From an uncultured Gammaproteobacteria bacterium (GTDB lineage: Bacteria; Patescibacteriota; Patescibacteriia; UBA10025; JAHIVO01), in assembly GCA_964415025.1 (NCBI GenBank), contig CAYPXF010000005.1, forward strand, positions 1,484-65,483: a DNA stretch of 64,000 nucleotides. Reading direction: 5' to 3'. Positions 45,371 through 59,438 of the stretch are shown here, one piece after another. A program made the position numbers and the translations under genes. The notes under the pieces are model-generated. The model worked only from the letters and a program-made list of their open reading frames with translations, was not told the origin of the DNA and did no database searches. Position 1 is the first letter of the stretch, and every line of letters begins with the position of its first letter.

Positions 45371-45406
45371 ATCCCCCCTGCTTAAAACAGCAGGGGGATT
45401 TTTTTC
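45371..45406 (+). terminator. rho-independent terminator
   Basis: ATCCCCCCTGC...GCAGGGGGAT hairpin plus TTTTTTT. Confidence 0.65.
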
Positions 45407-45505
45407 GAATATATGCTGGATATCTCAAAACAGGCAAGCGTTCGATAATCTTCCGCACGTAGCCCGCTCGTTCCGAGCGAACCGCTTCGTACTGTATGAC
45501 ATCAA

Positions 45506-45579
45506 TCGGGGTGGCGGGACTTGAACCCGCGACCTCACGCACCCCATGCGTACGCGCTAGCCAACTGCGCTACACCCCG
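45506..45579 (-). tRNA. tRNA-Pro (anticodon GGG), 74 nt, no encoded CCA
   Basis: revcomp folds as acceptor CGGGGTG/CACCCCG, D arm GCGC-AGTTGGCTA-GCGC, anticodon stem TACGC/GCGTG with loop AUGGGGU (GGG at 34-36, G37), T arm GCGGG-TTCAAGT-CCCGC. Confidence 0.85.
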
Positions 45580-45676
45580 GTTGGTTCCACAAGTCAATAA
45601 GCGCCTATCCCTCCGTATAACTATATGATAGTATCCTGTATTATACGTCGCTTTTGTATAAATGCAAATATTCAGC

Positions 45677-45713
45677 TAAAAAAATCCCCACTGTTAAATA
45701 TAACAGTGGGGAG
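45677..45713 (-). terminator. rho-independent terminator for the minus-strand gene at 45729-46328
   Basis: perfect 11-bp stem CCCCACTGTTA/TAACAGTGGGG with the T-run on the minus strand. Confidence 0.65.
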
Positions 45714-45728
45714 TGATGCATAATATTA

Positions 45729-46328
45729 TTATCTGAATGTGGGCACTGCCTGGGGCAGTGTTTTTATTATCTGCCGGGCAAACGGCTGCAGGTTTACCGG
45801 CAATTGACGGGAAAATCGGCTCGTGTCGGAAATTCTTGCATTGGTAATAAGAGCTGTTTTGCTTGTGCGAACAGCCATCAAGTACTGTACATCAGTGGTC
45901 GGTGATGTGCGCGGCGGCAGAATCTGGAATTCTTTGATTTTCATGAAGTTTGTTCCCTGCACTGAAACCAACAGGTGGCTGGGGGGATTGATCGGTGTTC
46001 CGTTTTCTATAGCCGGTATGGGTGTGGATTGGAATCGCAGGCAAAAATTCTGACCAGACAGATCAATCGGCATGATTGGCTCGAGCGCATTGCCATCCTG
46101 CCGTAGCAGTAATAGTTTGCGGCCGTGCACTGACCGTGCGTCGATAGCAAAAGCTATTTGTCGCGGCGGGCCAGCGCCGTTAATCGGAGCTGAGAACGTG
46201 AAGATAATCTCGTCGCCTTTTTTTTTCAATTCCTGCGGTGAAATAATTACCTGTCGGGATCCAGGCTCGTCCGTTTCGCCTGGTTGTTCATCAGAAAATA
46301 ATATAGCTCGAGAGGTAAGCTGCATCAA
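45729..46328 (-). CDS. hypothetical protein (199 aa)
   Basis: long ORF with its own downstream terminator; no recognisable motif. Confidence 0.5.
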   Translation of the reverse strand: MMQLTSRAILFSDEQPGETDEPGSRQVIISPQELKKKGDEIIFTFSAPINGAGPPRQIAFAIDARSVHGRKLLLLRQDGNALEPIMPIDLSGQNFCLRFQSTPIPAIENGTPINPPSHLLVSVQGTNFMKIKEFQILPPRTSPTTDVQYLMAVRTSKTALITNARISDTSRFSRQLPVNLQPFARQIIKTLPQAVPTFR

Positions 46329-46517
46329 AATGACCCTCCTTGGCGATCCTTCGCCAGTTGTGTGTTTGTATAAAGATCTCGAGGCGTGCTTGTCTTTATT
46401 GTACAGACATAGTAGCGATTATGTCAAAGTTCTGAAAAACTATACTGTATAACATGGTTATTTCATGAAGTCAAGGTAGTGTATTGCTAAAACCGTATTT
46501 TCACGCTATAAAGAGTA

Positions 46518-46590
46518 CATGGCTGATGATATTATTTTGGTTAATGCACAAGATAAACAAATTGGCACGGGTGAAAAAATGCCGGTGCTT
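46518..46590 (+). pseudogene. degenerate duplicate of the 5' end of idi (about 90% nt identity to 57992-58064; 1-nt insertion causes a frameshift)
   Basis: ATGGCTGATGATATTATTTTGGTTAATGCACAAGATAAACAAAATTGGCACGGGTGAAAAAATGCCGGTGC aligns with the intact idi start; identity stops exactly where a TTAGG array begins. Confidence 0.7.
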
Positions 46591-46596
46591 AAGTGA

Positions 46597-46630
46597 TTAG
46601 GTTTTAGGTGTTAAGAGGTTAGGTTTTCAG
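46597..46630 (+). repeat. TTAGGnn(n) degenerate heptamer/octamer tandem array, copy a
   Basis: gaTTAGGttTTAGGtgTTAAGaggTTAGGtt. Confidence 0.7.
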
Positions 46631-46664
46631 ACTAATAAAACCATTGAAATAGCGTCTAAATCTA

Positions 46665-46694
46665 CTGGAAAAATGGGGTGGTTTGGGGTATAAT
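46665..46694 (+). promoter_or_regulatory. repeated promoter module copy 1 (CTGGAA-18 nt-TATAAT within GGAAAAATGGGGTGGTTTGGGGTATAATA)
   Basis: near-identical 30-bp block also at 49469-49498; each lies ~30 nt upstream of a gene start. Confidence 0.5.
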
Positions 46695-46721
46695 AAGAAC
46701 ATAGATTAATAAAATAACACC

Positions 46722-47912
46722 ATGCAACAATTATTAAGAAGCATCCAGGAAATTGAAAAACTGGGCAACTATCCTTGTATCGATACCATTGAAGGTTCGC
46801 TGGGACCGAAGGTAAAAATTGACGGTGAAGATTATTATTTATTTTCTTCAAATGGGTATTTGGGGTTTTCAACTCATCCACAATGTAAAACCGCCGCAAT
46901 TAACGCGATAGAAAAGTATGGCACGGGTTCTGGTGCTTCGCGTGTTGTTTCGGGAACATATGATATACACACTAAACTTGAAGATGAGATAGCCAATTTC
47001 AAAGAAAAAGAGTCGGCCATGGTTTTGACCAGCGGATATTCGGCCAACGTAAGTCTGATACCAGTATTGGCAAACAGTTTTTCAATATTTAGCAAGAAGC
47101 CAGATTTTAAAACGATGATCTTTAGCGATGAATACAATCATGCGAGTATTATTGATGGTGTTAAATTGTCTGGATCGGCTGTTACAATATATCCGCATAA
47201 AGACATGAAGTTCTTAGAAGAAATGTTACAAAAGTATGATAGCTACCGGAAGCTCATTATTACGGATAGTATTTTTAGTATGGATGGGGACATAGCGCCT
47301 TTAGACAGAATAGTTGAACTGAAAAAAAAATATAATGCGATGCTATTAATAGATGAAGCGCACGCTACTGGCGTCATTGGTAAATACGGAAAGGGAGTTG
47401 CAAACTTTCTTAACGTGACTAAAGACGTGGATATCATAATGGGAACTTTCAGTAAGGCTTTTGGCTCTATTGGAGCATATATTGCCAGTAGTTGTGAAAT
47501 TATTAAATTACTAAAAGTTGCGGTAAGAGGGTATGTTTTTTCAACTGCACTCCCCCCCCCTGATCTGGCCGTTAGCCGAGAGTCTATAAAAATTTTGAAA
47601 GATAGTCCAGGTCTGGGCGATGAGCTTCAGAAAAAATCTACTTACCTTAGAGATTCTCTAAACAAAATAGGATTTTCGACACTTGGTAGCCAAACGCAAA
47701 TAATTCCTATTTTAATCGGAGACATTATGATAGCTTTGAAATTTCAAACTGAATTGAGGAAACGAAAAATTATCGCACCCTGCATCCAATGGCCAGCCGT
47801 ACCAAGGGATAAAAGTCGTATTAGATTCTCTGTCATGCTGACTCACTCAAAAGAGGATATAGAATACCTAATAAATTCATGCCAGAAGATTAAAAAAGAC
47901 CTACAAATATAA
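46722..47912 (+). CDS. PLP-dependent alpha-oxoamine synthase (BioF/Kbl/serine palmitoyltransferase family)
   Basis: 396 aa class II aminotransferase; PLP-lysine motif GTFSKAFGSIGAYIAS; family motifs DEAHATGVIG, SGYSANV. Confidence 0.8.
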   Translation: MQQLLRSIQEIEKLGNYPCIDTIEGSLGPKVKIDGEDYYLFSSNGYLGFSTHPQCKTAAINAIEKYGTGSGASRVVSGTYDIHTKLEDEIANFKEKESAMVLTSGYSANVSLIPVLANSFSIFSKKPDFKTMIFSDEYNHASIIDGVKLSGSAVTIYPHKDMKFLEEMLQKYDSYRKLIITDSIFSMDGDIAPLDRIVELKKKYNAMLLIDEAHATGVIGKYGKGVANFLNVTKDVDIIMGTFSKAFGSIGAYIASSCEIIKLLKVAVRGYVFSTALPPPDLAVSRESIKILKDSPGLGDELQKKSTYLRDSLNKIGFSTLGSQTQIIPILIGDIMIALKFQTELRKRKIIAPCIQWPAVPRDKSRIRFSVMLTHSKEDIEYLINSCQKIKKDLQI

Positions 47913-47927
47913 GAACCATTCAATATT

Positions 47928-49394
47928 ATGCTTGGCATCGCATTGTTATTAATCGGTATTGCTGAAATACTACTCAGCATTTTTGTATTAAAAAAGGGTT
48001 ATCAAAAAATTACTAATCTGTTATTCTTTTTCTTTGCTTTCATTACGGGTGTCTGGGTGATATCTAATTATTTAATTGGTGTTACCGAAAATATTTTCTG
48101 GCTAAAAATGGCTTACGCTCTTGGCGCGTTAATATATTCAGCCAGTTTTATTTGGTTATTAAATTTTTTATACCCAAAAATAAAAAAAACGTGGCTCTGG
48201 CTTATATTCATTATAGCTATTATCTTTTCAATTTTATCATTAACTGATGAGTTAATAATTAAAAAGGCAACAAAATTTTATTTTGGTGGTTTCGAGGGTG
48301 AATTCGGTATTTTATTTACACCCTATCTGATTTTTGCGGCATTAATGACGGTTTTAAATATTTGGTTTGTAGTCCGCGGGACTAAAATAAATATTGGCCA
48401 GAAAAAGCTACAGTTGAAATATATTACTATAGGTTTTGTAACCTTTGGGCTGGGCGCATCCTTGGCTTCATTTATTATCCCCAGCCTTGGCTATAAAGAA
48501 TTTATTCCTCTTGATTCAATATTTTCATTACCATTACTACTAGCAATTAGCTATGCCATTATTAAATATAGGTTTTTAGACATCCGCTTCATCCTCCGCA
48601 AATCCTTCATCTATGTTGGTCTTGCCGTATTCGTCTTCTTCGCCTACTACTTCGCCCTATGGCTGGATAATACTTTGTTTGGCGGGTCATACAGCATTGG
48701 CGGGTATCTTTCGGCCATTGCCATCGCCCCCCTTTTTCTCCTGGGGTTTGGCTATGTGAGCCGTTGGCTCAAGCATATCGCCAACAAATACTTTTTCACC
48801 GGTCTGTATGATTATCAGGAAGTATTAGAAACCTTCGCCAAGAGAATATCCCAGACCATTGAGCTGGATGAGGCGGTGAATGTAGTAGTAGAAACCATCC
48901 AGGGTGCCATGCGGGTAGATAACATAGCCATTGCCTTGTCAGATCCATCACATAAGATGCCCTTCCTTCTTCACAGAGTCATCGGTTTTAATAAGGAGGA
49001 ATTGGAAAATATCTGTGACCGCCAGACATTCTGCTCCTACCTCCAATCAGCCAAAAAACCAATTGTCATAGACGAACTTTTATCTGCCTCAGAAACAAAA
49101 GATAATCCCCACCTTATAAAAGACGCTAAATATCTCAAAGACCTGGGCGTGGCATTAATCCTACCCTTGGTGGTCCAAGATAATGTTAACAGCGTCTGTA
49201 TTGTAGGCAGGAAAATAACCAAAGAAGCCTATACCAAAGAAGACATTGATCTATTAACCACTCTTTCCAACCAAGCCTCGGTGGCCATTGAAAACGCCCG
49301 TCTGTATCAAGAAGTGCAGGATTTCAACCAGAACCTCCAGCAAAAAGTGGAAGACCAGACTAGGGACATCAAAGAGGCTTGTTTAGTATATTAG
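47928..49394 (+). CDS. truncated sensor histidine-kinase paralog: 6-TM sensor + GAF domain, no HisKA/HATPase
   Basis: 488 aa; the last ~265 aa are identical to residues ~225-490 of the full kinase at 51019; the ORF stops with the TAG of the first TTAGG repeat. Confidence 0.7.
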   Translation: MLGIALLLIGIAEILLSIFVLKKGYQKITNLLFFFFAFITGVWVISNYLIGVTENIFWLKMAYALGALIYSASFIWLLNFLYPKIKKTWLWLIFIIAIIFSILSLTDELIIKKATKFYFGGFEGEFGILFTPYLIFAALMTVLNIWFVVRGTKINIGQKKLQLKYITIGFVTFGLGASLASFIIPSLGYKEFIPLDSIFSLPLLLAISYAIIKYRFLDIRFILRKSFIYVGLAVFVFFAYYFALWLDNTLFGGSYSIGGYLSAIAIAPLFLLGFGYVSRWLKHIANKYFFTGLYDYQEVLETFAKRISQTIELDEAVNVVVETIQGAMRVDNIAIALSDPSHKMPFLLHRVIGFNKEELENICDRQTFCSYLQSAKKPIVIDELLSASETKDNPHLIKDAKYLKDLGVALILPLVVQDNVNSVCIVGRKITKEAYTKEDIDLLTTLSNQASVAIENARLYQEVQDFNQNLQQKVEDQTRDIKEACLVY

Positions 49395-49445
49395 GATATT
49401 AGGTTTTTGTGGTTAGTGTGCTTGGAAGTTAGTTGGTAGGTAAAC
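49391..49445 (+). repeat. TTAGGnn(n) tandem array, copy b
   Basis: aTTAGGataTTAGGtttttgtggTTAGtgtgcTTGGaagTTAGttggTAGGtaaa. Confidence 0.7.
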
Positions 49446-49468
49446 TAGTGAAATATAGCCTAATTATA

Positions 49469-49498
49469 TTGGAAAAATGGGGTTGCTTGGGGTATAAT
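49469..49498 (+). promoter_or_regulatory. repeated promoter module copy 2 (TTGGAA-18 nt-TATAAT)
   Basis: GGAAAAATGGGGTTGCTTGGGGTATAATA. Confidence 0.5.
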
Positions 49499-49525
49499 AG
49501 GGGTACTATAGAATAAATCAACGTT

Positions 49526-50353
49526 ATGTTTAAAGATTACTATATTAAACAATTAAGAATAAGAGGAAATGGAAAGTATAAATTGTTTGTACTGGAAAGC
49601 TTTAATGAATCAAAGAAACTATACAATATCCGAAATTTTATTTTACAAAATATTGATCAAATAATTAATGAGGGTTGGGGGAAATTTAGTAAAGATTTTA
49701 TTAGAAAACATATTATTTTTGCCAAGCGATTACTGGTATTAAGAAATGGGGAAAAAATTATAGCTATTGCCGCAGCTAGTGAAAAAAAAATCATTAATAA
49801 GGCTATGCTTTATTTAGAATTTACTGTAGTTCACCCCAACTTTAGGGGATTTAATCTTCTTTCTAAATTAAACTATATTTTGATTAGAGATGCTTTTCTA
49901 GGTAATTTATTTGTTAAGGGGGGGGGATTAAGTCTAGAAGTAATAACAATTACGCCCAATATGAGAGTGCTGGCGACTTTAGCAAAGGTCGCTAGTTTTA
50001 TTTACCCGAACCCTTTTGAGGCAGATGATAACGGTCGAATCTCGCAGGCAGATGATACAACATATAAAATTGCACAGGAAATTATTACGACGAGTGATGA
50101 TCCGAGTAGGCAAATTGAACGAGAGGGCCTAGTTCTTAAAGGTTCGTACAGAAATACCCCATGGCTTATACACGATCAGCCCCTACGACATTATAACGAA
50201 AATATAAATTTATTTTGTAAAAAATATATTGAATATGATAAAAGGAGCGATAAAGAATTCATTATTAGAGCAATAATTACTCCTAAAAGTTTTTTAAAAT
50301 TATTTTATAAGGTTTTCAAAAGACGCTTGTCTAATGGTAATGGGGAAAAATAA
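49526..50353 (+). CDS. hypothetical protein, possibly a GNAT-fold acyltransferase
   Basis: 275 aa; weak GNAT motif-A-like block VVHPNFRGFNLLSKL. Confidence 0.4.
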   Translation: MFKDYYIKQLRIRGNGKYKLFVLESFNESKKLYNIRNFILQNIDQIINEGWGKFSKDFIRKHIIFAKRLLVLRNGEKIIAIAAASEKKIINKAMLYLEFTVVHPNFRGFNLLSKLNYILIRDAFLGNLFVKGGGLSLEVITITPNMRVLATLAKVASFIYPNPFEADDNGRISQADDTTYKIAQEIITTSDDPSRQIEREGLVLKGSYRNTPWLIHDQPLRHYNENINLFCKKYIEYDKRSDKEFIIRAIITPKSFLKLFYKVFKRRLSNGNGEK

Positions 50354-50367
50354 TACTACGCTAAACT

Positions 50368-51009
50368 ATGAATAAAAAAAATTCTATAGAAAAAATAAGT
50401 GAGCAACAATTTGACAAGTGGGCGGTTAAATATGAAAAAGGTGTTTGGAATAAATATTTTACAAAAAGCATAAAACATGCAGTGCAATTAGCGAACATTC
50501 AAAAAACATCCAAGGTACTTGATTTGGGCTGTGGCACAGGCAAATTGAGTATTTTGTTAACAGAAAATCCATTTATAGAGCAGATAATTGGAATGGATAT
50601 TTCACAAAATATGATAAGGCAGGCAAAGTACAAACAGAAATATTTTAGACTTGGTGATAAAGTAAATTTTATGGTTGGAAATTCAAATAATCTTAATTTT
50701 GATAATGGCTACTTTGATTATGTATTCTGTCTTAATTCATTTCATCATTATCCCAGTCAAAGCAAAGTACTGGAAGAGGTTTTTAGAGTAATGAAAAGTG
50801 GAGGTCGGTTTATACTCCTGGATCCTTTTAGGGATAATATTTTACGAAAAACGTGGGCCGTGGCTTTAAAGAAAATTTTCAATGAAGATTACGCAGATTA
50901 CCAGACAAAGTCTGCTATTCAAGAAATGTTATTAAATTGTGGATTTCATAATTTACACCAAGAAACTTATTTATACTTTACATTGTTTACTATATCTGAA
51001 AAAAATTAA
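50368..51009 (+). CDS. class I SAM-dependent methyltransferase
   Basis: motif I VLDLGCGTGKLS; motif post-I GMDIS; Rossmann-fold spacing. Confidence 0.8.
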   Translation: MNKKNSIEKISEQQFDKWAVKYEKGVWNKYFTKSIKHAVQLANIQKTSKVLDLGCGTGKLSILLTENPFIEQIIGMDISQNMIRQAKYKQKYFRLGDKVNFMVGNSNNLNFDNGYFDYVFCLNSFHHYPSQSKVLEEVFRVMKSGGRFILLDPFRDNILRKTWAVALKKIFNEDYADYQTKSAIQEMLLNCGFHNLHQETYLYFTLFTISEKN

Positions 51010-51018
51010 AATAAGCTT

Positions 51019-53262
51019 ATGGATATCTCTATTTTAATATTAGTCAGCGTCACTAATTTGACACTTGGTTATTTAACGATTCATCAAGGCATTAAAAAGA
51101 AAATAAATCTTATTTTTTTTCTCCTTACATTATTTATTATCCAGTGGTCGGTTTTTAATTATTTTGGCGATTATTTTGCCGAGGTCAGTATAAATGAAAA
51201 AGTTTCAACAATTTATACCAGACTAACATATTTAGCCAGCTCGATTATTGCTGGTCTTTTCTTTGTTTTTGTTATTTTTTTTCCACGACAGCGGAAAAAA
51301 CTTTCAAAGATGCTTACATCAGGATTAATAATTGCTAGCATTGTTGTTATTACATTATCATTCACCACCCACATGGTAGAAAAAGTTAACGTTGTTGACA
51401 GTCAAGTAAATGTTAGTACGGGGTCTTTATTTTTTATATTTATTATCTATTTCGCCGTATTAATGGTTTCTTCTTTTGTTATTCTTATCAGAAAATATAT
51501 TTTATCCGAGGGAATAGAAAAAATACAAATCCGCTATTTTTTCTTAGGAACGTTTTTAGCAACATTGTTTGCGTCAATAACTAATATTTTTATCCCTCTC
51601 TTGACAGGCAGTTTTCAGGCATCGCGATTTGGACCGTATTTCACATTATTTTTCGTTGCCTTCACCGCCTACGCCATCATCAAACACCGCTTTCTCGACA
51701 TCCGCTTCATCCTTCGCAAATCCTTCATCTACGTAGGATTGGCAGTTTTCGTCTCCTTCGCCTACTACTTCGCCCTATGGCTGGATAATACTTTGTTTGG
51801 CGGGTCATACAGCATTGGCGGGTATCTTTCGGCCATTGCCATCGCCCCCCTTTTTCTCCTGGGGTTTGGCTATGTGAGCCGTTGGCTCAAGCATATCGCC
51901 AACAAATACTTTTTCACCGGTCTGTATGATTATCAGGAAGTATTAGAAACCTTCGCCAAGAGAATATCCCAGACCATTGAGCTGGATGAGGCGGTGAATG
52001 TAGTAGTAGAAACCATCCAGGGTGCCATGCGGGTAGATAACATAGCCATTGCCTTGTCAGATCCATCACATAAGATGCCCTTCCTTCTTCACAGAGTCAT
52101 CGGTTTTAATAAGGAGGAATTGGAAAATATCTGTGACCGCCAGACATTCTGCTCCTACCTCCAATCAGCCAAAAAACCAATTGTCATAGACGAACTTTTA
52201 TCTGCCTCAGAAACAAAAGATAATCCCCACCTTATAAAAGACGCTAAATATCTCAAAGACCTGGGCGTGGCATTAATCCTACCCTTGGTGGTCCAAGATA
52301 ATGTTAACAGCGTCTGTATTGTAGGCAGGAAAATAACCAAAGAAGCCTATACCAAAGAAGACATTGATCTATTAACCACTCTTTCCAACCAAGCCTCGGT
52401 GGCCATTGAAAACGCCCGTCTGTATCAAGAAGTGCAGGATTTCAACCAGAACCTCCAGCAAAAAGTGGAAGACCAAACCAGGGACATCAAAGAGGCCAAC
52501 AAACGACTGGAAAAACTCCTGCAGATCCGTTCGGAATTTCTGGATATTGCCAGCCATCAATTAAGAACTCCTGTCTCCATGATCCGCGGGGTATTGTCCA
52601 TGATTAGGGAAGGGGATCTGGAAAAATTACCTAAAGCCAAACAGAAAAAATTTATTGAAAATGCTTGGGAAAAAGGGGCCAAGCTGGATACCATTATCAA
52701 CGACATCCTGGCCGCTTCGGAATTGGACACCCAGAAATTTCAGGTAGAGAAAGACACCCCGGCTATTCAGTTGGAAGACGTGGTTGATCAAGTGGTCAAA
52801 GAATCCCAGATGGAAGCGGAGCAGAGGAAGATAGAATTAAAATGGTACAAACCTAAAACCATTCTTCCCAAAATTCAAGGACATACCAAATTTTTAAATG
52901 AGGCCATTTCCAATCTGGTTAGTAATGCCTTGAAATATACCCCTTCAACTGAGATGGTAAAAGAGGCCAGAACTCAGCGTAAACAAAAAGGCGTGGTAGA
53001 AGTAGAGGTTGAGCAAAAGGATAATAATGTTGTGGTCAAAGTTAAAGATAACGGCATCGGCATTCCCAAAGATGAAATAAAAAATCTGTTCGACAAGTTC
53101 GCTCGTGCCTCCAATGCCACGGCCATGTATACGGACGGCTCGGGTCTCGGACTATTCATCGTTAAAGAGATCGTTGAAGGGCACAAAGGAAAAGTCTGGG
53201 TGGAGAGTGAGGAGGGTAAGGGGTCAACATTTTATGTTAGTTTGCCGGTGGCGAATGATTAG
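51019..53262 (+). CDS. sensor histidine kinase (7-TM sensor, GAF, HisKA, HATPase_c)
   Basis: 747 aa; H-box SHQLRTPVS, N-box NLVSNALKYT, G-boxes DNGIGIP and GSGLGL; the stop TAG is part of a TTAGG repeat. Confidence 0.9.
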   Translation: MDISILILVSVTNLTLGYLTIHQGIKKKINLIFFLLTLFIIQWSVFNYFGDYFAEVSINEKVSTIYTRLTYLASSIIAGLFFVFVIFFPRQRKKLSKMLTSGLIIASIVVITLSFTTHMVEKVNVVDSQVNVSTGSLFFIFIIYFAVLMVSSFVILIRKYILSEGIEKIQIRYFFLGTFLATLFASITNIFIPLLTGSFQASRFGPYFTLFFVAFTAYAIIKHRFLDIRFILRKSFIYVGLAVFVSFAYYFALWLDNTLFGGSYSIGGYLSAIAIAPLFLLGFGYVSRWLKHIANKYFFTGLYDYQEVLETFAKRISQTIELDEAVNVVVETIQGAMRVDNIAIALSDPSHKMPFLLHRVIGFNKEELENICDRQTFCSYLQSAKKPIVIDELLSASETKDNPHLIKDAKYLKDLGVALILPLVVQDNVNSVCIVGRKITKEAYTKEDIDLLTTLSNQASVAIENARLYQEVQDFNQNLQQKVEDQTRDIKEANKRLEKLLQIRSEFLDIASHQLRTPVSMIRGVLSMIREGDLEKLPKAKQKKFIENAWEKGAKLDTIINDILAASELDTQKFQVEKDTPAIQLEDVVDQVVKESQMEAEQRKIELKWYKPKTILPKIQGHTKFLNEAISNLVSNALKYTPSTEMVKEARTQRKQKGVVEVEVEQKDNNVVVKVKDNGIGIPKDEIKNLFDKFARASNATAMYTDGSGLGLFIVKEIVEGHKGKVWVESEEGKGSTFYVSLPVAND

Positions 53263-53315
53263 GCAGTTAGGTCTTAGTAATTTGGTAATAGGTTCAGAAA
53301 TTTGAAATTAGGTAT
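53259..53315 (+). repeat. TTAGGnn(n) tandem array, copy c
   Basis: gaTTAGGcagTTAGGtcTTAGtaatttggtaaTAGGttcagaaatttgaaaTTAGGta. Confidence 0.7.
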
Positions 53316-53360
53316 TACTAAAATAAAAAATAAATAAAAATACTAAATTATTATGAATTT

Positions 53361-53507
53361 ATGGCTTTAATTAAAAAAGATTCAAAAACACTGGTTGATT
53401 ATATCAAAACTGAGATTGAACAGGCAGTAAGTAATGAAATCAAGCCTCTGTGTCAAGATATTAATGCGCATCAGAGCTCGGTGGATAAATATATTAAACA
53501 AACATAG
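53361..53507 (+). CDS. possible 48-aa small protein
   Basis: ATG-to-TAG ORF in an otherwise gene-free 260-nt gap; no RBS; below the ORF-track cutoff. Confidence 0.2.
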   Translation: MALIKKDSKTLVDYIKTEIEQAVSNEIKPLCQDINAHQSSVDKYIKQT

Positions 53508-53580
53508 GATTGGCATCAAGAGTTTATTGTTAGTAAAGGCATAGCCACTGAAAAAAAACTCTAACCATAAAATTTCAACA

Positions 53581-53985
53581 ATGAAATTGAATAAAAAATC
53601 ATCTGATAAATTATGGGGTGAAACAGGCCCCTATTCACAAGTCAATCTTATCATGCAAGAAAGAATTCTTGATGATAAGGTAAGTCGCGTTTTCGCTATA
53701 GTTGAGGTGGAAATAAATCCATTGACTTTTGAAATTATCAAACAAAACAGGAAGGCGGACATTTTTAAAAATGACATAAAGATTCAACAATTGCTTGACA
53801 CCGCGGAATATAGAGGCATTGCCTTTGGTTATGTATCGTCAGCTTATGAAAAACAGTTAACTGGCCCAGAGATTATGAAAGAAGCGGAAAAGAGCCTTGA
53901 TTATACACGGAAAACCGTTATTAAGATGCATAAATTTGTGATGGATTTGTTGGATGTAGACAACAAAAAGCAAAAAGATAGATAG
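53581..53985 (+). CDS. hypothetical protein (134 aa)
   Basis: ORF only. Confidence 0.5.
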   Translation: MKLNKKSSDKLWGETGPYSQVNLIMQERILDDKVSRVFAIVEVEINPLTFEIIKQNRKADIFKNDIKIQQLLDTAEYRGIAFGYVSSAYEKQLTGPEIMKEAEKSLDYTRKTVIKMHKFVMDLLDVDNKKQKDR

Positions 53986-54002
53986 AATTAACTAACGATC
54001 AT

Positions 54003-54060
54003 AACCTATTAACCTAAAACCTACCCCCTATAACCTAATCGCCTAATCCCTAAAACCTAA
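54003..54060 (-). repeat. TTAGGnn(n) tandem array, copy d (inverted, reads CCTAA on plus), abutting the start codon of the REC gene
   Basis: aaCCTAttaaCCTAAaaCCTAcccCCTAtaaCCTAAtcgCCTAAtcCCTAAaaCCTAATG. Confidence 0.7.
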
Positions 54061-54437
54061 TGACTACAAAACCTAAAATACTTTTAATCGAAGACGATTC
54101 GGATCAAATATTTCTCTACCAAAGCAAATTTGAAATTGAGGGATTTGATTTTATTTCCAGTCGGGATGGTGATGCAGGCATTACCAAGGCCAAATCAGAA
54201 AAACCCGATTGCATCCTGTTGGACTTGGTGTTGATTAATGAAAGCGGAATTGAAGTGTTAGAAAAAATAAAAAAAGACCAAAATATTAAACATATACCGG
54301 TTATTATTCTCACCAATTTGGTGCAAAAAGATAACGAGCAAAAAGCTATAGAGTTAGGAGCCGCTGATTTTCTTATCAAAACAAATATGATGCCGTCGGA
54401 TGTGGTGAAGAGAGTTAGGAAGTTGTTAAAAATATAG
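54060..54437 (+). CDS. stand-alone REC-domain response regulator
   Basis: 125 aa; KILLIEDDSDQIFLY...LLDLVLINESGIEVL...ILTNLVQKDN. Confidence 0.8.
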   Translation: MTTKPKILLIEDDSDQIFLYQSKFEIEGFDFISSRDGDAGITKAKSEKPDCILLDLVLINESGIEVLEKIKKDQNIKHIPVIILTNLVQKDNEQKAIELGAADFLIKTNMMPSDVVKRVRKLLKI

Positions 54438-54566
54438 TTAAGGTAGCTTGTTATTAAGCTATGATTTTTTGTATGATTAAATTTATATTTGAAGTGTTTG
54501 ACATTATTATATTAATAATGTATAATGGAAGTAAGATAAAGTATTACTTCCATCAAATATATCTTT

Positions 54567-55139
54567 ATGGATAGTTTAATAACTATATTATATAGGTCTA
54601 GTAAGACTATTTTGACTAATAAGGATATTGCTTTGATGTGGGGAGAAACCCATCAAGGTAATCTTAAATCTAAAATTGCCTATTATGTTAAACGTGGATT
54701 TTTAATCCGTCTAACGAGAGGTGTATTTGCCAAGGATAAAAATTATAATCCAAAAGAATTAGCCACCAGCATATATACCCCTTCATATATTAGTTTTGAA
54801 ACCGTACTTCGGGAATCGGGAAATATTTTTCAACATTATGATACAATTTTTGTGGCTGGTCCGTGGCCACTGTCAAAAAAAATTAATAAATATGCTTTCA
54901 CATTCAGACGATTAAAAGACAGTGTATTATATAACGCCGCCGGGATTAAAAATGAAAATAATTACAGCATGGCAACCCCAGAGCGAGCTTTTTTGGATAT
55001 GATTTATTTATTCCCAAGATATTATTTTGATAATCTGGCGATGATTGATTGGCAAAAGTGCTTTGAACTGGTAAATATTTATGGTAACCAGCAGTTGACC
55101 AAACGGCTGGTAAAATATCAGCAACAATATGTTAAATAA
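54567..55139 (+). CDS. AbiEi-family antitoxin/transcriptional regulator (type IV TA / abortive infection)
   Basis: 190 aa; wHTH-like N-terminus; YISFETVLRESGNI and ERAFLDMIYL blocks typical of AbiEi; 11-nt overlap with the downstream gene. Confidence 0.7.
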   Translation: MDSLITILYRSSKTILTNKDIALMWGETHQGNLKSKIAYYVKRGFLIRLTRGVFAKDKNYNPKELATSIYTPSYISFETVLRESGNIFQHYDTIFVAGPWPLSKKINKYAFTFRRLKDSVLYNAAGIKNENNYSMATPERAFLDMIYLFPRYYFDNLAMIDWQKCFELVNIYGNQQLTKRLVKYQQQYVK

Positions 55140-55857
55140 AAATAAACACCAGTTAATTATGGGGCAGATTTTAAGGGACATTTATGCCGATGTTTCAATT
55201 TCTTCATTGTTAGGTTTAAAAGGTGATACCGGTGCATATTTTTTCTACAGCCTTTCTAGATTTTCGGTTGATTTAGATTTTGATTTGTTTTTTACTAACG
55301 AATCAACACAAAAGTTAATGTTTGAAAAAATCAAAAACATAACAAAGAAGTATGGTAAAATTAAAAATAGCTACATCAAAAGAAATACTATCTTTTCACT
55401 TCTTTCATACGGTGATACCGATCATAATATAAAAATAGAAATAAATACCAGAATGTTAATGCCAGACATCAGGCAATACTACGAGATGAAGGAATATTTG
55501 GGAATTTCTATGTTAGTCGGCAAAAAGGATTATATGTTTGCCAGCAAATTAGTCGCCTTAACAAATTGCCGTACCACAGCGATGCGTGATATTTACGATA
55601 TTTGGTATTTCGCCAAAAATAATTGGGATATCAGCGAGGAGGTAATTTTGACGAGAATCAAGAAGACCATTCCCGAGCATTTGGGCGACTGTATTTCGGT
55701 AATCGAAAAAATAAAAGACAATGAAATTTTACAAGGTCTGGGTGAACTTTTGAATGATAAAGAAAAGATATGGGTAAAAAAGAATTTGAGAAAAGATGTA
55801 ATATTTCATCTTAAAAATTATCAAACTGTATTAGCCCACCGCTCTGGCAATGAATGA
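55129..55857 (+). CDS. AbiEii/AbiGii-family nucleotidyltransferase toxin
   Basis: 242 aa; NTase-fold motif LKGDTGAYFFYSLSRFSVDLDFD (GS..D.D); TA-style overlap with the upstream gene. Confidence 0.7.
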   Translation: MLNKNKHQLIMGQILRDIYADVSISSLLGLKGDTGAYFFYSLSRFSVDLDFDLFFTNESTQKLMFEKIKNITKKYGKIKNSYIKRNTIFSLLSYGDTDHNIKIEINTRMLMPDIRQYYEMKEYLGISMLVGKKDYMFASKLVALTNCRTTAMRDIYDIWYFAKNNWDISEEVILTRIKKTIPEHLGDCISVIEKIKDNEILQGLGELLNDKEKIWVKKNLRKDVIFHLKNYQTVLAHRSGNE

Positions 55858-55964
55858 AAAAATGCATTATAATAAAATAGCTATGAAAAAAATACTACTT
55901 TCCTTTCGGCAAGCTTAGGGTCAGTATACGGGGCAAGAGGTGGCGTTAAAAAACTATTAAGATT

Positions 55965-56348
55965 ATGAATAACAAAGCGAACAAAAAAACCATTCTGTTG
56001 ATTGAAGACGACCAAGATCAAATACTACTCTACCAGGCTAAATTTGAGCTGGAAGGATATGCATTTATCTCTGCGGAAAATGGTCAAAAAGGACTTGAAC
56101 TGGCCACCAAGGAAAAACCCAACCTCATATTGATTGACTTATTGATGGCCGGCATGGGTGGTATTGAAGTATTGGAGAAACTGAAAGACAATCCGGAAAC
56201 AAAGAACATCCCCGCGGTCATCGTCACCAACTTAGACAAGCAGGATTTAGCCAAAAAAGCTATGGCTTTGGGCGCCCAGGATTTCATCGTCAAATCCAGC
56301 GTACCACTGAGGGAAATGATGTCTCGGATAAAAGAGTTTCTGAAATAG
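55965..56348 (+). CDS. stand-alone REC-domain response regulator
   Basis: 127 aa; TILLIEDDQDQILLY...LIDLLMAGMGGIEVL...IVTNLDKQD. Confidence 0.8.
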   Translation: MNNKANKKTILLIEDDQDQILLYQAKFELEGYAFISAENGQKGLELATKEKPNLILIDLLMAGMGGIEVLEKLKDNPETKNIPAVIVTNLDKQDLAKKAMALGAQDFIVKSSVPLREMMSRIKEFLK

Positions 56349-56364
56349 CTTTAATTAATATATA

Positions 56365-56392
56365 AAAAAGCTCGCCATCCGGCGAGTTTTTT
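56365..56392. terminator. bidirectional rho-independent terminator between convergent genes
   Basis: AAAAAG-CTCGCC-atcc-GGCGAG-TTTTTT. Confidence 0.7.
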
Positions 56393-56414
56393 GATTCCTG
56401 TAATTCTTATTTGT

Positions 56415-56825
56415 TTATTTCTTCGTTTTGTACTTTTTTATTAATCCCTCCATAATTTCCACCAGCTTTTCCGGTGTAGTCGTATATTTAACGATAAACG
56501 TATCAGCATGTAGCTGCTCGGCTTTGGTTTTGTATTCAGCGCTATCCCAGTTGGTGAGGATCATGACCGGCACCGGTTTGTAGTCTTTTTTCTTGCGGAA
56601 ATACTCCAGGATCATCCAGCATTCTGAATCGGGCAGTACTACGTCCAGGATTAACGCTTTAGGGTGCTCGTTCCGCAAGGCCAGCACGGCGGAAATTGCT
56701 GTCCGGGCCATGATCGGGGTGTATCCTTCAATAACGAATTTCTGCCGGAACATTTCTGACAGAAATTTATCATCTTCCACGAAGAGGATTTTGCCCTTGT
56801 TCGGTTTTTTACCTTTTTTTGGCAT
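56415..56825 (-). CDS. stand-alone REC-domain response regulator
   Basis: 136 aa; KILFVEDDKFLSEMF...ILDVVLPDSECWMIL...ILTNWDSAEY. Confidence 0.8.
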   Translation of the reverse strand: MPKKGKKPNKGKILFVEDDKFLSEMFRQKFVIEGYTPIMARTAISAVLALRNEHPKALILDVVLPDSECWMILEYFRKKKDYKPVPVMILTNWDSAEYKTKAEQLHADTFIVKYTTTPEKLVEIMEGLIKKYKTKK

Positions 56826-56830
56826 GTGGT

Positions 56831-57166
56831 TTATTTACTGAGTATTTTCTGCAGGTACCTGTATATAATTTTACCATGCGGACTGCGTTTATTCAATCGC
56901 TTGAGAAACAGCTTGGCTTCTTTTTTCTTGGCAATATCTGGAATGGTACCCAGTTTCAGAAGTCCGTCGAAAACAAAGATTTTGTAAATTTCTTCCTCGG
57001 ATAATCCGAGTATCCTGAACGCTTTAATGGCTGTTTTTTCCGATGGCTGACGCTGTTCTTTTTCGATACGAAACAGCGAGATGCGGTTAATGCCGAGCTT
57101 TTTGGAAAGCTCCATAACGCCCATCCCTTGTTCGGTGCGTAGTATTTTTATCAGTTCGCCAAGCAT
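56831..57166 (-). CDS. XRE-family helix-turn-helix transcriptional regulator
   Basis: 111 aa; ILRTEQGMGVMELSKKLGINRISLFRIE HTH_3 pattern; 5 nt upstream of the REC gene on the same strand. Confidence 0.75.
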   Translation of the reverse strand: MLGELIKILRTEQGMGVMELSKKLGINRISLFRIEKEQRQPSEKTAIKAFRILGLSEEEIYKIFVFDGLLKLGTIPDIAKKKEAKLFLKRLNKRSPHGKIIYRYLQKILSK

Positions 57167-57231
57167 AGTTGTATAGACAGTATATCATTTGGCGTGTCCT
57201 CTGGCGAGAGGGTGGGGTGTGGATAAGTTGC

Positions 57232-57262
57232 CTTGACAGGCAACATGGGGTGATATAAAGTA
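57232..57262 (+). promoter_or_regulatory. promoter with extended -10 (TTGACA ... TGaTATAAA) inside a GTTGCC/GGCAAC inverted repeat
   Basis: seen directly in the divergent intergenic region upstream of 57295. Confidence 0.4.
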
Positions 57263-57294
57263 GTTGGTTATATATGTTACCTAAATAGGCAACT

Positions 57295-57894
57295 ATGGAT
57301 ATAGGTCAATACAATCTTCAGCAAAAAAGGGTTTCCCCAGAAGGACTGTTTGCACGCATATCTCGGGAAATGCAGGTGAAAATAAATTGCTGTAAACTAT
57401 GCTTTTTAATGCAGGATGCAAATTCGACTAATTTTATTACTGTCTATACAAAAACCCACGATCGCCTCATCATAACTAAAAAAGAAATTGAGGCCTTAGA
57501 ACAGGAGTCAAGGGAAACAGTTATTATGTATCCCTTGCAGTTATTGCGCAAGAATAAGTCTGGTAAATGGTATTTTATGAATAAAACATACTGGAGCATT
57601 AAACTTAAAAAAATATTCGCCATACTGCCAATTTACGATGACAATACAATAATTTGCCTAGTTGTTTTTTTAGATCAAAATATTAAGAGTAAATTAATTA
57701 GTAACTATTCTTATATCACGCTATTGCGAAGAGAAATAACATACTGCATAAAAGCAATTATGCTTTATAACCGTTCCATTGCAAGAATCGTAGAAACAAG
57801 AGCTGGCATTAAACAAAATCCGTCATATCGAACAAACTATTTTATTAAAAAACAAGATTTAGTCCTGATTGTAGATAAAATAAGATTTTGGTAA
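57295..57894 (+). CDS. hypothetical protein (199 aa)
   Basis: ORF only; divergent from the XRE-REC operon. Confidence 0.5.
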   Translation: MDIGQYNLQQKRVSPEGLFARISREMQVKINCCKLCFLMQDANSTNFITVYTKTHDRLIITKKEIEALEQESRETVIMYPLQLLRKNKSGKWYFMNKTYWSIKLKKIFAILPIYDDNTIICLVVFLDQNIKSKLISNYSYITLLRREITYCIKAIMLYNRSIARIVETRAGIKQNPSYRTNYFIKKQDLVLIVDKIRFW

Positions 57895-57991
57895 TATTAT
57901 ATTTAAGTAGACCCATCTTGCTTCGAATGTTAGATTGACTACTGTCTATATATTATAGGAATATAAATTATTTTAACATTACTTATTAATT

Positions 57992-58501
57992 ATGCCCGAT
58001 GATATTATTTTGGTTAATGCACAAGATGAACAAATCGGTACGGGTGAAAAAATGCCGGTGCATGAGCAAGGGTTGCTGCACCGCGCCTTTTCAGTGCTTA
58101 TTTTTAATAGCAATGGAGAGCTGCTGCTCCAGCAGCGGGCTAAAAGCAAGTACCATTGCGGTGGACTGTGGACCAATACAGTCTGCAGCCATCCCCGGTC
58201 GGGGGAGAGCATACTAGAGGCTGCCCACCGCCGGCTGCAGGAGGAAATGGGTTTTAACTGTGTCCTGCGGGAAACAGACAAGTTTACGTACCGCGCCGAG
58301 TTTGACAACGGCCTGATCGAGCATGAGATAGATCATGTGGTTACCGGCCTTTTTGACGGGAATCCGGAGATTAATCCAGACGAGGCTGATGCCTATCGGT
58401 GGATATCATTGCCAGACCTGCGGCATGACATGAAAACCAGTCCGGAAAAGTATACCCCGTGGTTTATAAAAATTATCGGCGAACGTTTATTCATTCGTTA
58501 G
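57992..58501 (+). CDS. idi: isopentenyl-diphosphate delta-isomerase type 1 (NUDIX fold)
   Basis: 169 aa; LHRAFSVLIFNSNGELLLQQRA...WTNTVCSHP...E.E type-1 IDI signature. Confidence 0.85.
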   Translation: MPDDIILVNAQDEQIGTGEKMPVHEQGLLHRAFSVLIFNSNGELLLQQRAKSKYHCGGLWTNTVCSHPRSGESILEAAHRRLQEEMGFNCVLRETDKFTYRAEFDNGLIEHEIDHVVTGLFDGNPEINPDEADAYRWISLPDLRHDMKTSPEKYTPWFIKIIGERLFIR

Positions 58502-58553
58502 GAGCCAATTTTGTTATTAGGACTTAATGCCCGTTTTTACAGTAAGACCTGTT

Positions 58554-58582
58554 TTGACCTATACTTTTATACAGAGTATACT
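58554..58582 (+). promoter_or_regulatory. sigma70-like promoter (TTGACC-17 nt-TATACT), probably giving a leaderless transcript for the copper cluster
   Basis: -10 ends 11 nt before ATG 58594. Confidence 0.5.
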
Positions 58583-58593
58583 AGAATTTGCCT

Positions 58594-58902
58594 ATGCGTT
58601 TAACCACATTAGTAACTATTGCAAGCTTTTTAGCCATTACCGGACTGGCAGTGTTGATATTTCACTATGCCATGCCGTCGGGTATGTCCATGAGCGAGGA
58701 ACAGTGCCTGATGCATTGCTTGTCTGCAGGTGATATACAAATACTGGCCACTTCAGTGATAACTGCTTTTGCCCTGCTGCTGGGCGTGATGCTGGCATAT
58801 GATAGTGGCTATGTTTTTCGTTTCCTGTCCCCTGTAGCAGTCAAACAGAAAATATTTCATCCGCCGCCCAGTATCATCGGCAGTACGGTGCTGCTAGAAT
58901 AA
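58594..58902 (+). CDS. small membrane protein (102 aa) heading the copper cluster
   Basis: two TM helices; Met/His/Cys residues; ATG at 58594 preferred over the TTG at 58588 used by the ORF track. Confidence 0.5.
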   Translation: MRLTTLVTIASFLAITGLAVLIFHYAMPSGMSMSEEQCLMHCLSAGDIQILATSVITAFALLLGVMLAYDSGYVFRFLSPVAVKQKIFHPPPSIIGSTVLLE

Positions 58903-58951
58903 AATAATTTCTTTAGTACGATAGTTAATCATTAAGTATCGCTTTTTTGCT

Positions 58952-59434: not shown

Positions 59435-59438
59435 ACCT

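Follow-up and report, generated by a model that had tools for sequence, protein, structure and literature searches.

An 11.4-kb integrase-free block flanked by a stub and an intact copy of idi in an uncultured, probably Patescibacteria genome

How does an essential isoprenoid gene come to stand at one end of an 11.4-kb block of AT-rich DNA whose other end carries a copy of the first codons of that same gene? The question is raised by a metagenome-assembled stretch of 64,000 nt, hereafter the window (GCA_964415025.1, contig CAYPXF010000005.1, positions 1,484-65,483, forward strand), whose host is probably an uncultured Patescibacteria bacterium. The block, which carries accessory signaling and biosynthesis genes, is a genomic island of the ordinary kind, except that it has no integrase. 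The evidence supports the view that it was inserted at the 5′ end of idi, leaving a stub and a regenerated intact gene.

The two copies of the idi start (46519-46593 and 57992-58066) aligned over 75 nt without gaps at 91% identity, and their truly common part spans 70 nt (46519-46588 and 57992-58061), running ungapped from ATG to GGTGC with 5 mismatches. The direct repeat of about 73 bp and about 90% identity described in an earlier note on this DNA is thus real, with its shared extent trimmed to 70 nt, whereas the frameshifting 1-nt insertion assigned to the left copy disappeared upon ungapped alignment. The left copy instead opens an in-frame, 25-codon stub (46519..46596, + strand), in which the 70 nt of the repeat (46519-46588) are followed by LK and a TGA stop at 46594-46596. 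Its translation, MADDIILVNAQDKQIGTGEKMPVLK*, ends just ahead of the first conserved His of Idi, which we take, from E. coli Idi, to be a metal ligand. The right copy forms the first 70 nt (57992-58061) of an intact type 1 isopentenyl-diphosphate isomerase gene (57992..58501, + strand). Its full-length product scored 169.6 bits with NCBIfam NF002995 (cutoff, 127) and 128.5 bits with TIGR02150 (cutoff, 105.8), and the TNTxCSHP and ExE motifs expected of a type 1 enzyme are visible beside those of homologues. Similarity between the copies sets in precisely with the ATG. The 60-nt stretches preceding them show no relationship, so a simple tandem duplication is excluded. Within the repeat lie perfect tracts of 30 and 22 nt; the latter, the right-hand core, occurs exactly twice in the 64 kb (0 expected from 100 shuffles). 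What now serves as the upstream region of intact idi is the right end of the block (57895..57991, + strand), where GC content falls to its lowest value (25.5% in the 200-nt segment 57801-58000).

A contig assembled from a metagenome could display this layout as a chimera, if two strains or unrelated contigs had been joined at the short idi repeat. The assembly does have weak points. The Logan assembly, made independently from the same reads (SRR7048225), breaks at a 720-nt exact repeat in the block, where its contig L082 stops at 48667. This leaves the internal order of a 3.1-kb unit, and how often it occurs, insecure, and the two assemblies disagree on the length of a C run (C9 versus C10) in the alpha-oxoamine synthase gene. 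Against a chimera, both the junction of stub and array and that of p199R and idi were 100% identical in the Logan assembly, well inside contigs L082 (33988-48667; left junction) and L081 (54261-58408; right junction). Graph collapse at the repeat would be unlikely because the longest stretch of identity between the idi copies is 30 nt, and the join of idi nucleotide 70 to TTAAGTGATTAGG cannot come from strain mixing. We consider an artifactual origin highly improbable.

Only two syntenic relatives were found, L001 and L003, and the comparison for an empty site proposed in the earlier note gave the anticipated result, as both carry tRNA-Pro(GGG) followed by idi without the block, which supports insertion. 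L001 has the order LigA-GatA-REC(85%)-NDK(82%)-...-tRNA-Pro-idi-...-DsbA(73%), with 219 nt from tRNA to idi; in L003, tRNA-Pro precedes one unrelated gene and then idi-DUF411-p208-DsbA-ATPase. The empty site is documented in distant relatives only (64-85% amino acid identity), because the nearest idi is 65% identical and no close relative was seen; of the genes queried from the host flanks (idi, NDK, hyp199, DUF411, DsbA, and GatA), none had a relative at 90% identity or above. In the window, the tRNA-Pro(GGG) gene (45506..45579, − strand; ARAGORN and Rfam), a conserved neighbor of idi in the relatives, lies 940 bp to the left of the block, close to the 900 bp first estimated, and is inverted with respect to L001 and L003, where it occupies the + strand upstream of idi. 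Between tRNA and block lies a gene for a hypothetical 199-amino-acid protein (hyp199; 45729..46328, − strand) with host-like GC3 (0.51), no family match, no counterpart in L001 and L003 by tblastn, and no relatives in the metagenome contig collection. In L001, the gap between tRNA-Pro and idi holds a tRNA-3′-like fragment between 13-nt direct repeats, and the region looks like a hotspot. Integrases typically target such hotspots beside tRNA genes. A cluster of type IV pilus genes, possibly used for DNA uptake, is also present in the window.

The block between the copies (11,403 bp) has 36.1% GC, compared with 48.05% in the left and 48.04% in the right flank, and its tetranucleotide distance from the host is 0.457, compared with 0.10-0.16 for host chunks of equal size. 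The block is therefore more AT-rich than its flanks, as first perceived, but the step from AT-rich to foreign is weakened by the GC3 of several of its genes. GC3 is host-like in REC2, REC3, and XRE (0.47-0.57; 0.45-0.57 with the kinase included), and p275 and its neighbor show GC3 of 0.31-0.33 even in genomes that place them between cell-division and glycolysis genes. Because many block genes proved AT-rich in all genomes inspected, composition is no proof of recent arrival.

Rather than a uniform foreign element, the block is a mosaic of operons known from other Patescibacteria genomes. The sets comprise the alpha-oxoamine synthase (AONS) with a 7TM-GAF protein; p275 with a methyltransferase and a histidine kinase; a kinase with three REC proteins, XRE, and p198; and a putative AbiE toxin-antitoxin pair. 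Several of these operons are conserved in other Patescibacteria, one of them among core genes, which qualifies the earlier statement that the block lacks such genes. The inventory given then was broadly right, except that the block holds three REC-only genes, the fourth (43548-43982) belonging to the host flank. AONS (46722..47912, + strand; BioF/Kbl-like; Pfam PF00155, 191 bits; C9 tract at 47552-47560) was best matched by the NCBIfam BioF model at 396.8 bits, under the 426.45 cutoff; its assignment as a CqsA/LqsA alpha-hydroxyketone autoinducer synthase is not supported (NF005526, 209.6 bits versus a cutoff of 428). The rare GNAT-related protein p275 (49526..50353, + strand; G9 tract at 49918-49926) has 19 homologues, two of which match PF00583, and precedes a SAM-dependent methyltransferase (50368..51009, + strand; Methyltransf_11, 84 bits). 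To the right follow p134 (53581..53985, + strand), which has no assigned function and no match in Pfam, NCBIfam, PHROGs, or PDB, and the REC-only response regulator REC1 (54060..54437, + strand; PF00072), 62% identical to its L084 homologue. REC2 (55965-56348, + strand), REC3 (56415-56825, − strand), and XRE (56831-57166, − strand) are syntenic with L084-L099 and share 83%, 90%, and 90% protein identity with their counterparts there. Relative to the L090 layout, the AbiE pair (54567..55857) is an insertion between REC1 and REC2. Its AbiEi-like gene (54567-55139, + strand; NF047376, 34.3 bits versus a cutoff of 150) and AbiEii gene (55129/55159-55857, + strand; PF08843, 49.7 bits versus 22.5) overlap or abut, as is typical of AbiE type IV toxin-antitoxin systems, and the module has a copy of 97.6% nucleotide identity in another sample (L083). 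The last gene, p199R (57295..57894, + strand), is a positional homologue (30% amino acid identity) of p198 in L084-type loci, with no assigned function, no family or PDB match, and an unusable AF2 model (pLDDT 35).

The layout of gene fragment, insert, and whole gene recurs inside the block. A 7TM-GAF protein, in effect a histidine kinase without its kinase half (HK′; 47928..49394, + strand), is followed by an array, p275, the methyltransferase, a second 7TM portion, and the rest of the kinase, the full-length 7TM-GAF-HisKA-HATPase protein (51019..53262, + strand; Pfam) being 52% identical to the kinase at the L084 end. Positions 48551-49378 of HK′ duplicate 51669-52496, and these 828 nt hold 720 identical bases (48638-49357, 100% identical to the partner). 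The kinase repeat looks like the product of homologous rather than site-specific recombination, because 720 identical bases far exceed any att core. The HK′ ortholog in L103 is truncated elsewhere along the gene.

Wherever synteny breaks inside the block, a short TTAGG array is present. The first, A1 (46584..46627, + strand; Tandem Repeats Finder), confirms that the idi fragment runs into such an array, albeit a short one, with a 22-nt unit present twice (GGTGCTTAAGTGATTAGGTTTTA / GGTG-TTAAGAGGTTAGGTTTTCA). The idi repeat and A1 overlap by the 5 nt GGTGC, which close the former and open the 22-nt unit of the latter. Downstream lies a promoter-like module, P1 (46638..46695, + strand; TGGAAA-17-TATAAT at 46666-46694), 83% identical to module P2 (49442-49499, + strand), which in turn follows array A2 (49383-49440, + strand); A2 begins precisely where HK′ breaks off. 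The kinase stop codon TAG is inside the first GATTAGG unit of A3 (53257..53312, + strand), and A4 (54005..54075, − strand), inverted with respect to A1 with about 7-9 AACCTAA units on the + strand, overlaps the REC1 start codon; p134 sits between the inverted A3 and A4. A truncated gene abuts an array in three cases, namely, idi′ and HK′ here and HK′′ in the GCA_964524365.1 lineage. In L106, from a lineage other than the present one, the unit of array, promoter, and AONS adjoins a different truncated gene.

The earlier remark that no integrase is present held in wider searches. No integrase, transposase, or resolvase was detected among the block ORFs by Pfam, or by NCBIfam and PHROGs for those ORFs to which these were also applied, nor among about 20 flank ORFs scanned, which covered all ORFs of 120 amino acids or more in 42053-60791. 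Intergenic gaps in the block do not exceed 318 nt. The block likewise yielded no excisionase, replication, transfer, phage, or other mobile-element backbone gene, and plasmid and phage collections gave no DNA match to it.

The account that we favor, tentatively and at somewhat less than even odds, is that the block entered by a single Campbell-type crossover in the first 70 bp of idi, probably through host recombination. The arriving DNA would have had an idi start of its own as one end and a TTAGG array as the other, the two being joined. After one reciprocal crossover within those 70 bp, the block would be bordered on the left by the original upstream region and a dead stub of 25 codons, and on the right by a rebuilt full-length idi, now read from island DNA. 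Homologous recombination by the host, with the perfect tracts of the repeat on offer, would be the most likely agent because the block encodes no recombinase. The joint of idi and array may stem from an earlier event, a microhomology join at GGTGC, and the block would now be a fixed part of the chromosome. We infer the circular intermediate, the enzyme, the order of events, and the way in which the idi fragment joined the array; neither a circular form nor a donor genome was observed. The internal 828-nt layout, the GGTGC microhomology, the type IV pilus cluster, and the L106 joint were counted in favor of host recombination.

A tyrosine or serine integrase could also have done the work if an element had borne an attP mimicking the idi start and its integrase had since been lost or acted in trans, leaving a CIME-type island; we rate this as possible but rather unlikely. 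Imperfect gene-end repeats around compositionally distinct DNA are what it predicts, as are the empty site in relatives, a position next to a tRNA gene, the scars in L001, and the presence of an AbiE module, common on islands. The tandem repeat beside the junction is a candidate for arm-type binding sites. The ATG opens the repeat, and regeneration has given the gene a different upstream region, as happens with SXT/R391 at the prfC 5′ end (PMC2791158). A start exactly at the ATG is expected of an element-borne replacement gene end shaped by selection and suits an integrative element no less well than it does host recombination. Nevertheless, this explanation must contend with the lack of recombinase, excisionase, replication, transfer, and phage genes and of plasmid or phage DNA matches, and with cargo operons that are chromosomal in other Patescibacteria. 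A second idi start was absent from 80 of 80 other idi loci, and the exact 30-mer of the repeat had no occurrence in viral or metagenome collections. With 93% identity between the copies even at synonymous sites, the putative mimic would derive from the same idi lineage and not from an old element-borne att, and three internal positions have arrays without any idi-like core. What stands of the attL/attR-like insertion proposed in the earlier note is the insertion, with its stub and regenerated gene; the integrase origin of the repeats and the immobilized or decayed element invoked there are conjectural. An old resident block, lost from L001 and L003 and furnished here with a locally made stub, for example by replication template switching at the ATG and GGTGC microhomologies that copied the 70-nt idi start, is improbable. 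The host-like GC3 of REC2, REC3, XRE, and the kinase, the AT richness of many block genes wherever they occur, the microhomology at the left joint, and the remoteness of the relatives would all suit it. Such a history, however, requires that the block was lost either twice independently or once at depth, and in addition that a rare templated insertion had its left end, by chance, exactly on the start codon; moreover, the tetranucleotide difference between block and host is 3-4 times the spread among host chunks, and the AbiE module is nearly identical to its counterpart in a second sample, whereas none of the queried genes from the host flanks has a relative that close.

The block shares features with several established systems. 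Phage 21 and e14 integrate in E. coli icd and bring a substitute gene-end copy with few, mostly silent differences, so that the gene stays intact. The duplicated gene end and the whole gene are common to both situations, but the phage 21/e14 case replaces the 3′ end of icd and not a 5′ end and promoter region as here, and both elements bring an integrase and phage genes of their own. CIMEs, e.g., in Streptococcus thermophilus, are integrase-less, att-flanked islands that share att with a cognate ICE of the same species. Like them, the block lies between att-like direct repeats at the end of a conserved gene and has no recombination or transfer genes; it differs in that no cognate element or integrase is known for it and its repeat recurs at none of 80 idi loci. 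Campbell-type homologous insertions include complex class 1 integrons with a duplicated 3′-CS and IS26 translocatable units. As in these, part-gene direct repeats of arbitrary length flank the insert (here, 70 nt of idi and 828 nt of kinase) and integration needs no dedicated site-specific recombinase; unlike them, the block has no transposase as a circle generator (ISCR1 or IS26 in those cases), and its recurring boundary is a TTAGG heptamer array without assigned function. Hochhut and Waldor reportedly found in 1999 that the SXT element supplies a new gene start and promoter. SXT/R391 ICEs integrate at the 5′ end of prfC and are defined as a family by a near-identical tyrosine integrase, Int; as in the block, a conserved housekeeping gene is entered at its 5′ end and stays functional between near-identical attL/attR-like flanks (PMC2791158). 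The block, however, has no Int, Xis, or conjugation backbone, targets idi, sits in another host phylum with other cargo, and carries a 70-nt repeat instead of a short core; neither the Int_SXT-type integrase nor the prfC target that mark family members is present. With integrative elements in general, it has in common the target-derived flanking repeats and a site unoccupied in relatives (of only 64-85% protein identity), and it departs from them in encoding no tyrosine or serine recombinase and in the lack of recurrent target use (0/80 idi loci).

If entry by host recombination is correct, 11 kb of genes for sensing and small molecules entered a reduced, Patescibacteria-type genome with no dedicated integrase involved, and essential idi, whose expression would now depend on island DNA, was kept. 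The idi repeat alone is a textbook-style island scar; the recurring array joint is the more useful lead. Speculatively, and with a low probability in our estimation, TTAGG arrays may delimit cassettes the size of operons, which would travel among Patescibacteria genomes with no recombinase encoded by the element. Each cassette would open with an array and promoter and close with the 5′ part of its landing gene, and homology-based integration would leave a truncated gene copy against the array and rebuild the gene downstream. This would amount to recombinase-free, transformation-driven shuffling of signaling and biosynthesis operons in reduced genomes. The joint of truncated gene, TTAGG array, promoter, and operon, seen in two lineages, provides a searchable signature for the exchange of accessory operons.

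A repeat search aligned 46519–46593 with 57992–58066 (75 nt, 91% identical, ungapped), and base-by-base comparison narrowed the common part to 70 nt with five mismatches, running from the idi ATG to GGTGC (46519–46588 and 57992–58061). The direct repeat of the idi 5′ end claimed in the earlier note is thus borne out at both ends of the AT-rich block. The frameshifting 1-nt insertion that the same note had placed in the left copy is absent; this copy aligns without gaps and reads in frame as a 25-codon ORF (MADDIILVNAQDKQIGTGEKMPVLK; TGA stop at 46594–46596) whose end falls immediately ahead of the first conserved Idi histidine. The right copy is the start of a full-length type-1 IPP isomerase, which scores above both NCBIfam cutoffs. 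Similarity sets in exactly at the ATG, the 60 nt 5′ of each copy being unrelated, and gives way to complete divergence beyond nucleotide 70. The 22-nt core at the right-hand side of the repeat occurs exactly twice in the window and never in 100 shuffles. Neither upstream region is homologous to those of idi in the syntenic relatives L001 and L003. Island DNA was rejected as the source of the AT-rich start of idi, since its first 23 codons have a GC3 of 0.35, inside the range of host genes (0.449 ± 0.10 over the first 23 codons).

GC content is 36.1% in the intervening 11,403 bp, against 48.0% in each flank, and the tetranucleotide distance of this block to the host is 0.457, compared with 0.10 to 0.16 for host chunks of equal size, which bears out the compositional contrast first noticed by eye. 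At the right end GC rises abruptly, from 25.5% at 57801–58000 to 56% at 58101–58300. Taken as a whole, the block is distinct from its flanks, yet it is not one uniform foreign element, because GC3 inside it spans 0.25 (p275) to 0.57 (REC3), around a host mean of 0.50 ± 0.055. Synteny with the window was seen in 2 of 80 idi loci taken from species-representative genomes. L001 (CAZJUO010000012.1) retains LigA (71%), GatA (64%), REC (85%), NDK (82%), and the downstream DsbA (73%), and carries between NDK and idi a zinc-ribbon ORF, an unrelated 152-aa ORF, and tRNA-Pro(GGG), the last at 219 nt from idi. L003, a Patescibacteria MAG, shows tRNA-Pro(GGG), one transporter-like gene, and idi, followed 3′ by DUF411, p208, DsbA, and a P-type ATPase, as in the window. 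Nothing resembling the block occurs in either locus. The empty-site comparison proposed earlier therefore found tRNA-Pro and then idi without the block, which favours insertion, with both relatives being distant and lacking hyp199, the hypothetical 199-aa protein encoded directly left of the stub. The empty site is seen in distant relatives alone, because the nearest other Idi is 65% identical (best among 5.8 billion proteins), an exact Idi look-up matched no contig, the repeat 30-mer had no match in metagenome_contigs and viral_contigs, and hyp199 had no relatives in metagenome_contigs.

On the plus strand, the block encodes an alpha-oxoamine synthase (AONS; BioF/Kbl-like; 46722–47912), a 7TM-GAF histidine kinase devoid of its kinase half (HK′; 47928–49394), the rare GNAT-related protein p275 (49526–50353), an SAM methyltransferase (MT; 50368–51009), a complete 7TM-GAF-HisKA-HATPase kinase (51019–53262), p134 (53581–53985), REC1 (54060–54437), an AbiEi-like protein with AbiEii (54567–55857), REC2 (55965–56348), and p199R (57295–57894). 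REC3 (56415–56825) and an XRE regulator (56831–57166) lie on the minus strand. Three of the four REC-only proteins previously counted in the block are indeed inside it; the fourth (43548–43982) belongs to the host flank. By NCBIfam score, AONS does not belong to the CqsA/LqsA-type synthases (209.6 against a cutoff of 428), and it ranks slightly under the cutoff for BioF. The proteins p134 and p199R matched nothing in PHROGs or PDB sequence searches; a single-sequence AF2 model of p199R (pLDDT 35) was left unused. Pfam, NCBIfam, and PHROGs scans of the block returned no integrase, resolvase, transposase, excisionase, replication, transfer, or phage structural genes, as the earlier note had said of the integrase, and intergenic gaps do not exceed 318 nt. 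Scanned flank ORFs, which include type IV pilus genes, a peptidase, LemA, a glycosyltransferase, NDK, DUF411, and DsbA, also yielded no recombinase. LigA, GatC, and GatA are among the genes called on L082, a Logan contig from the same sample. Searches of plasmid and phage collections gave no DNA match.

The block is made up, as a mosaic, of operons that occur in other Patescibacteria. The trio p275-MT-kinase, or p275-PS-decarboxylase-like gene-kinase, was found in L101 (a 1.15-Mb Patescibacteria contig) and L102, between cell-division/murein genes and PGK-enolase-iPGM. There, p275 and the next gene (L101, 10001–11450; L102, 10001–11487) occupy the same position and have a GC3 of 0.31 to 0.33 within surroundings of 0.5 to 0.7. 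Their AT-richness is a trait of the genes and not proof of recent import, because their GC3 is low even where the core genes of L101 and L102 surround them. Another sample contains a relative at 75.7% nucleotide identity (L100). The kinase-REC1-REC2-REC3-XRE-p198 order is retained in many metagenome contigs (L084 to L099), with amino acid identities to the L084-type set of 52, 62, 83, 90, 90, and 30%, respectively; the genes flanking it there are radical-SAM, Tmk, and NUDIX, idi not being among them. Compared with L090, the block has the AbiE pair as an additional insertion between REC1 and REC2. Its genes and the end of REC1 (54311–55864) are 97.6% identical over 1,554 nt to L083 from an unrelated sample (ERR14790950), and none of the host flank genes queried (idi, NDK, hyp199, DUF411, DsbA, and GatA) has a relative at ≥90%; the AbiE toxin-antitoxin module therefore appears to move on its own. 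AONS and the 7TM-GAF gene have a copy with 93% amino acid (84 to 86% nucleotide) identity in L103 to L112, one of these contigs coming from GCA_964524365.1, the same MAG as L084.

A 'fragment/insert/whole gene' layout recurs within the block at larger scale. The kinase GAF region at 48551–49378 duplicates 51669–52496, and the repeat brackets the array-p275-MT-7TM segment. The first ∼90 nt of the duplication are ∼80% identical, and 720 nt (48638–49357) match the partner perfectly. The length of this repeat speaks for homologous recombination or gene conversion, and gene conversion or a tandem/circular unit is possible for the 3.1-kb segment. Internal order and copy number of this unit are uncertain, because L082 ends (48667) where the exact repeat begins. 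The 64 kb contain just two G/C homopolymers of at least 8 nt, C9 in AONS (47552–47560) and G9 in p275 (49918–49926); a run of nine arises in 7 of 2,000 block shuffles. The Logan assembly of the same sample reads C10, splitting AONS into 280 and 126 aa. C9 is kept in L103 to L108, and p275 of L100 has an interrupted G6AGG. Both tracts may be phase-variable switches.

All four TTAGG-type heptamer arrays of the window lie inside the block. A1 (46584–46627, plus strand) is the array already reported at the left idi fragment, now seen to be short, with two copies of a 22-nt unit; A2 (49383–49440, plus) sets in at the HK′ break point, A3 (53257–53312, plus) lies 3′ of the kinase stop codon, and A4 (54005–54075, minus; ∼7 to 9 AACCTAA units) covers the REC1 start codon. 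They mark the left edge of the block as well as each internal start or stop of similarity to other lineages: similarity to L103 stops at 49306 and that to L100 begins at 49461, and L084 similarity stops at 53255 and restarts at 54060. A promoter-like module (TGGAAA-17-TATAAT; 83% identical) follows both A1 and A2. Three truncated genes run into arrays with their stop codons within or beside the first units, namely, the idi stub (A1), HK′ (A2), and a kinase fragment upstream of AONS in L106 (...NALKYTPS/LGY-stop). The pentamer GGTGC closes the idi repeat and opens the repeated A1 unit, so the idi-array joint looks like a microhomology join. The arrays may serve as recombination ends, regulator-binding arrays, or terminators. 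Array-bounded cassettes in two lineages, the part of these data that deserves pursuit, would, if real, mean recombinase-free operon exchange in Patescibacteria, a reading to which we assign a low probability. TTAGG-type arrays also precede AONS in another lineage (L104 to L112; e.g., L106, 400–434). Kinase genes near these operons are repeatedly broken and partly duplicated. In L103 (2700–2760) the kinase beside AONS is cut elsewhere, after the H-box (...SLIRG/VFG-stop), and an H-box sequence identical to it starts the L106 contig upstream of AONS (1–45). L100 (1–177) carries a kinase HisKA fragment 5′ of the p275 promoter; an IS200-like motif considered there was a wrong-frame reading of this histidine kinase fragment.

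We tentatively favour, at somewhat less than even confidence, host homologous recombination as the maker of the crossover behind this structure. Incoming, presumably circular DNA would have brought in an idi start fused to the array, and one crossover with the chromosomal idi would have generated the present arrangement. Host recombination is preferred because the block encodes no recombinase, its cargo is ordinary chromosomal operons, perfect tracts of 30 and 22 nt exist, the layout is repeated with an 828-nt repeat, and a second idi start was found in none of the 80 other idi loci. Integrase-mediated insertion, as the earlier note envisaged, by an enzyme that may be encoded beyond the 64-kb window, is the less probable reading; a repeat beginning exactly at the ATG, a gene regenerated with a new upstream region, as described for SXT/R391 at prfC (PMC2791158), and a hotspot adjoining a tRNA speak for it, but no recombinase was found in the block or the flank ORFs scanned. 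The region works as an integration that regenerates a gene end does, with parallels in SXT/R391 at prfC and phage 21/e14 at icd, and it resembles CIMEs, which are att-flanked islands without an integrase. It differs from an integrase-borne element in the defining feature, since no recombinase was found.

Other origins fare worse. An ancestral locus in which the idi start was copied locally from a template is improbable. Tandem duplication is ruled out because the DNA upstream of the two copies is unrelated. A transposon-style target-site duplication is implausible, as the repeat spans 70 nt, far above the known lengths of such duplications, and its copies differ at five sites. An assembly artefact is even less probable than the ancestral locus; independent Logan contigs of the same read set (L082 and L081), 100% identical to the window, run through the two junctions, which therefore are not the product of one assembler.

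The surroundings of tRNA-Pro(GGG) (45506–45579) differ from those in the relatives. The tRNA shares the strand of idi in L001 and L003 but occupies the minus strand in the window, and the adjacent hyp199 (45729–46328, minus strand) has no homologue anywhere searched; together, these features would imply a local inversion or replacement beside the insertion site. The gene at the equivalent position of L001 proved not homologous to hyp199. Only a weak 20-nt inverted repeat flanks the tRNA (45330–45349/45607–45626). In L001, the tRNA-Pro-idi spacer (9782–10000) harbours a tRNA-3′-end-like fragment, GGTCACCGGTTCAAGTCCGGTATCCCCGA, bracketed by the 13-nt direct repeat AATAAGTGATAGT (9826 and 9955). 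Fragment and repeats resemble a scar left by an earlier element, which hints at a hotspot in the tRNA-Pro/idi interval. The 8-mer TAAGTGAT, common to the left junction of the window and this spacer repeat, was dismissed as too weak a match (70 occurrences in 1.4 Mb of sequence, ∼43 expected). Finally, L001 is labelled 'uncultured Gammaproteobacteria bacterium', shares gene order and 64 to 85% protein identity with the window, and has the tRNA-Pro/idi neighbourhood and DsbA in common with the Patescibacteria MAG L003; its label is probably wrong.
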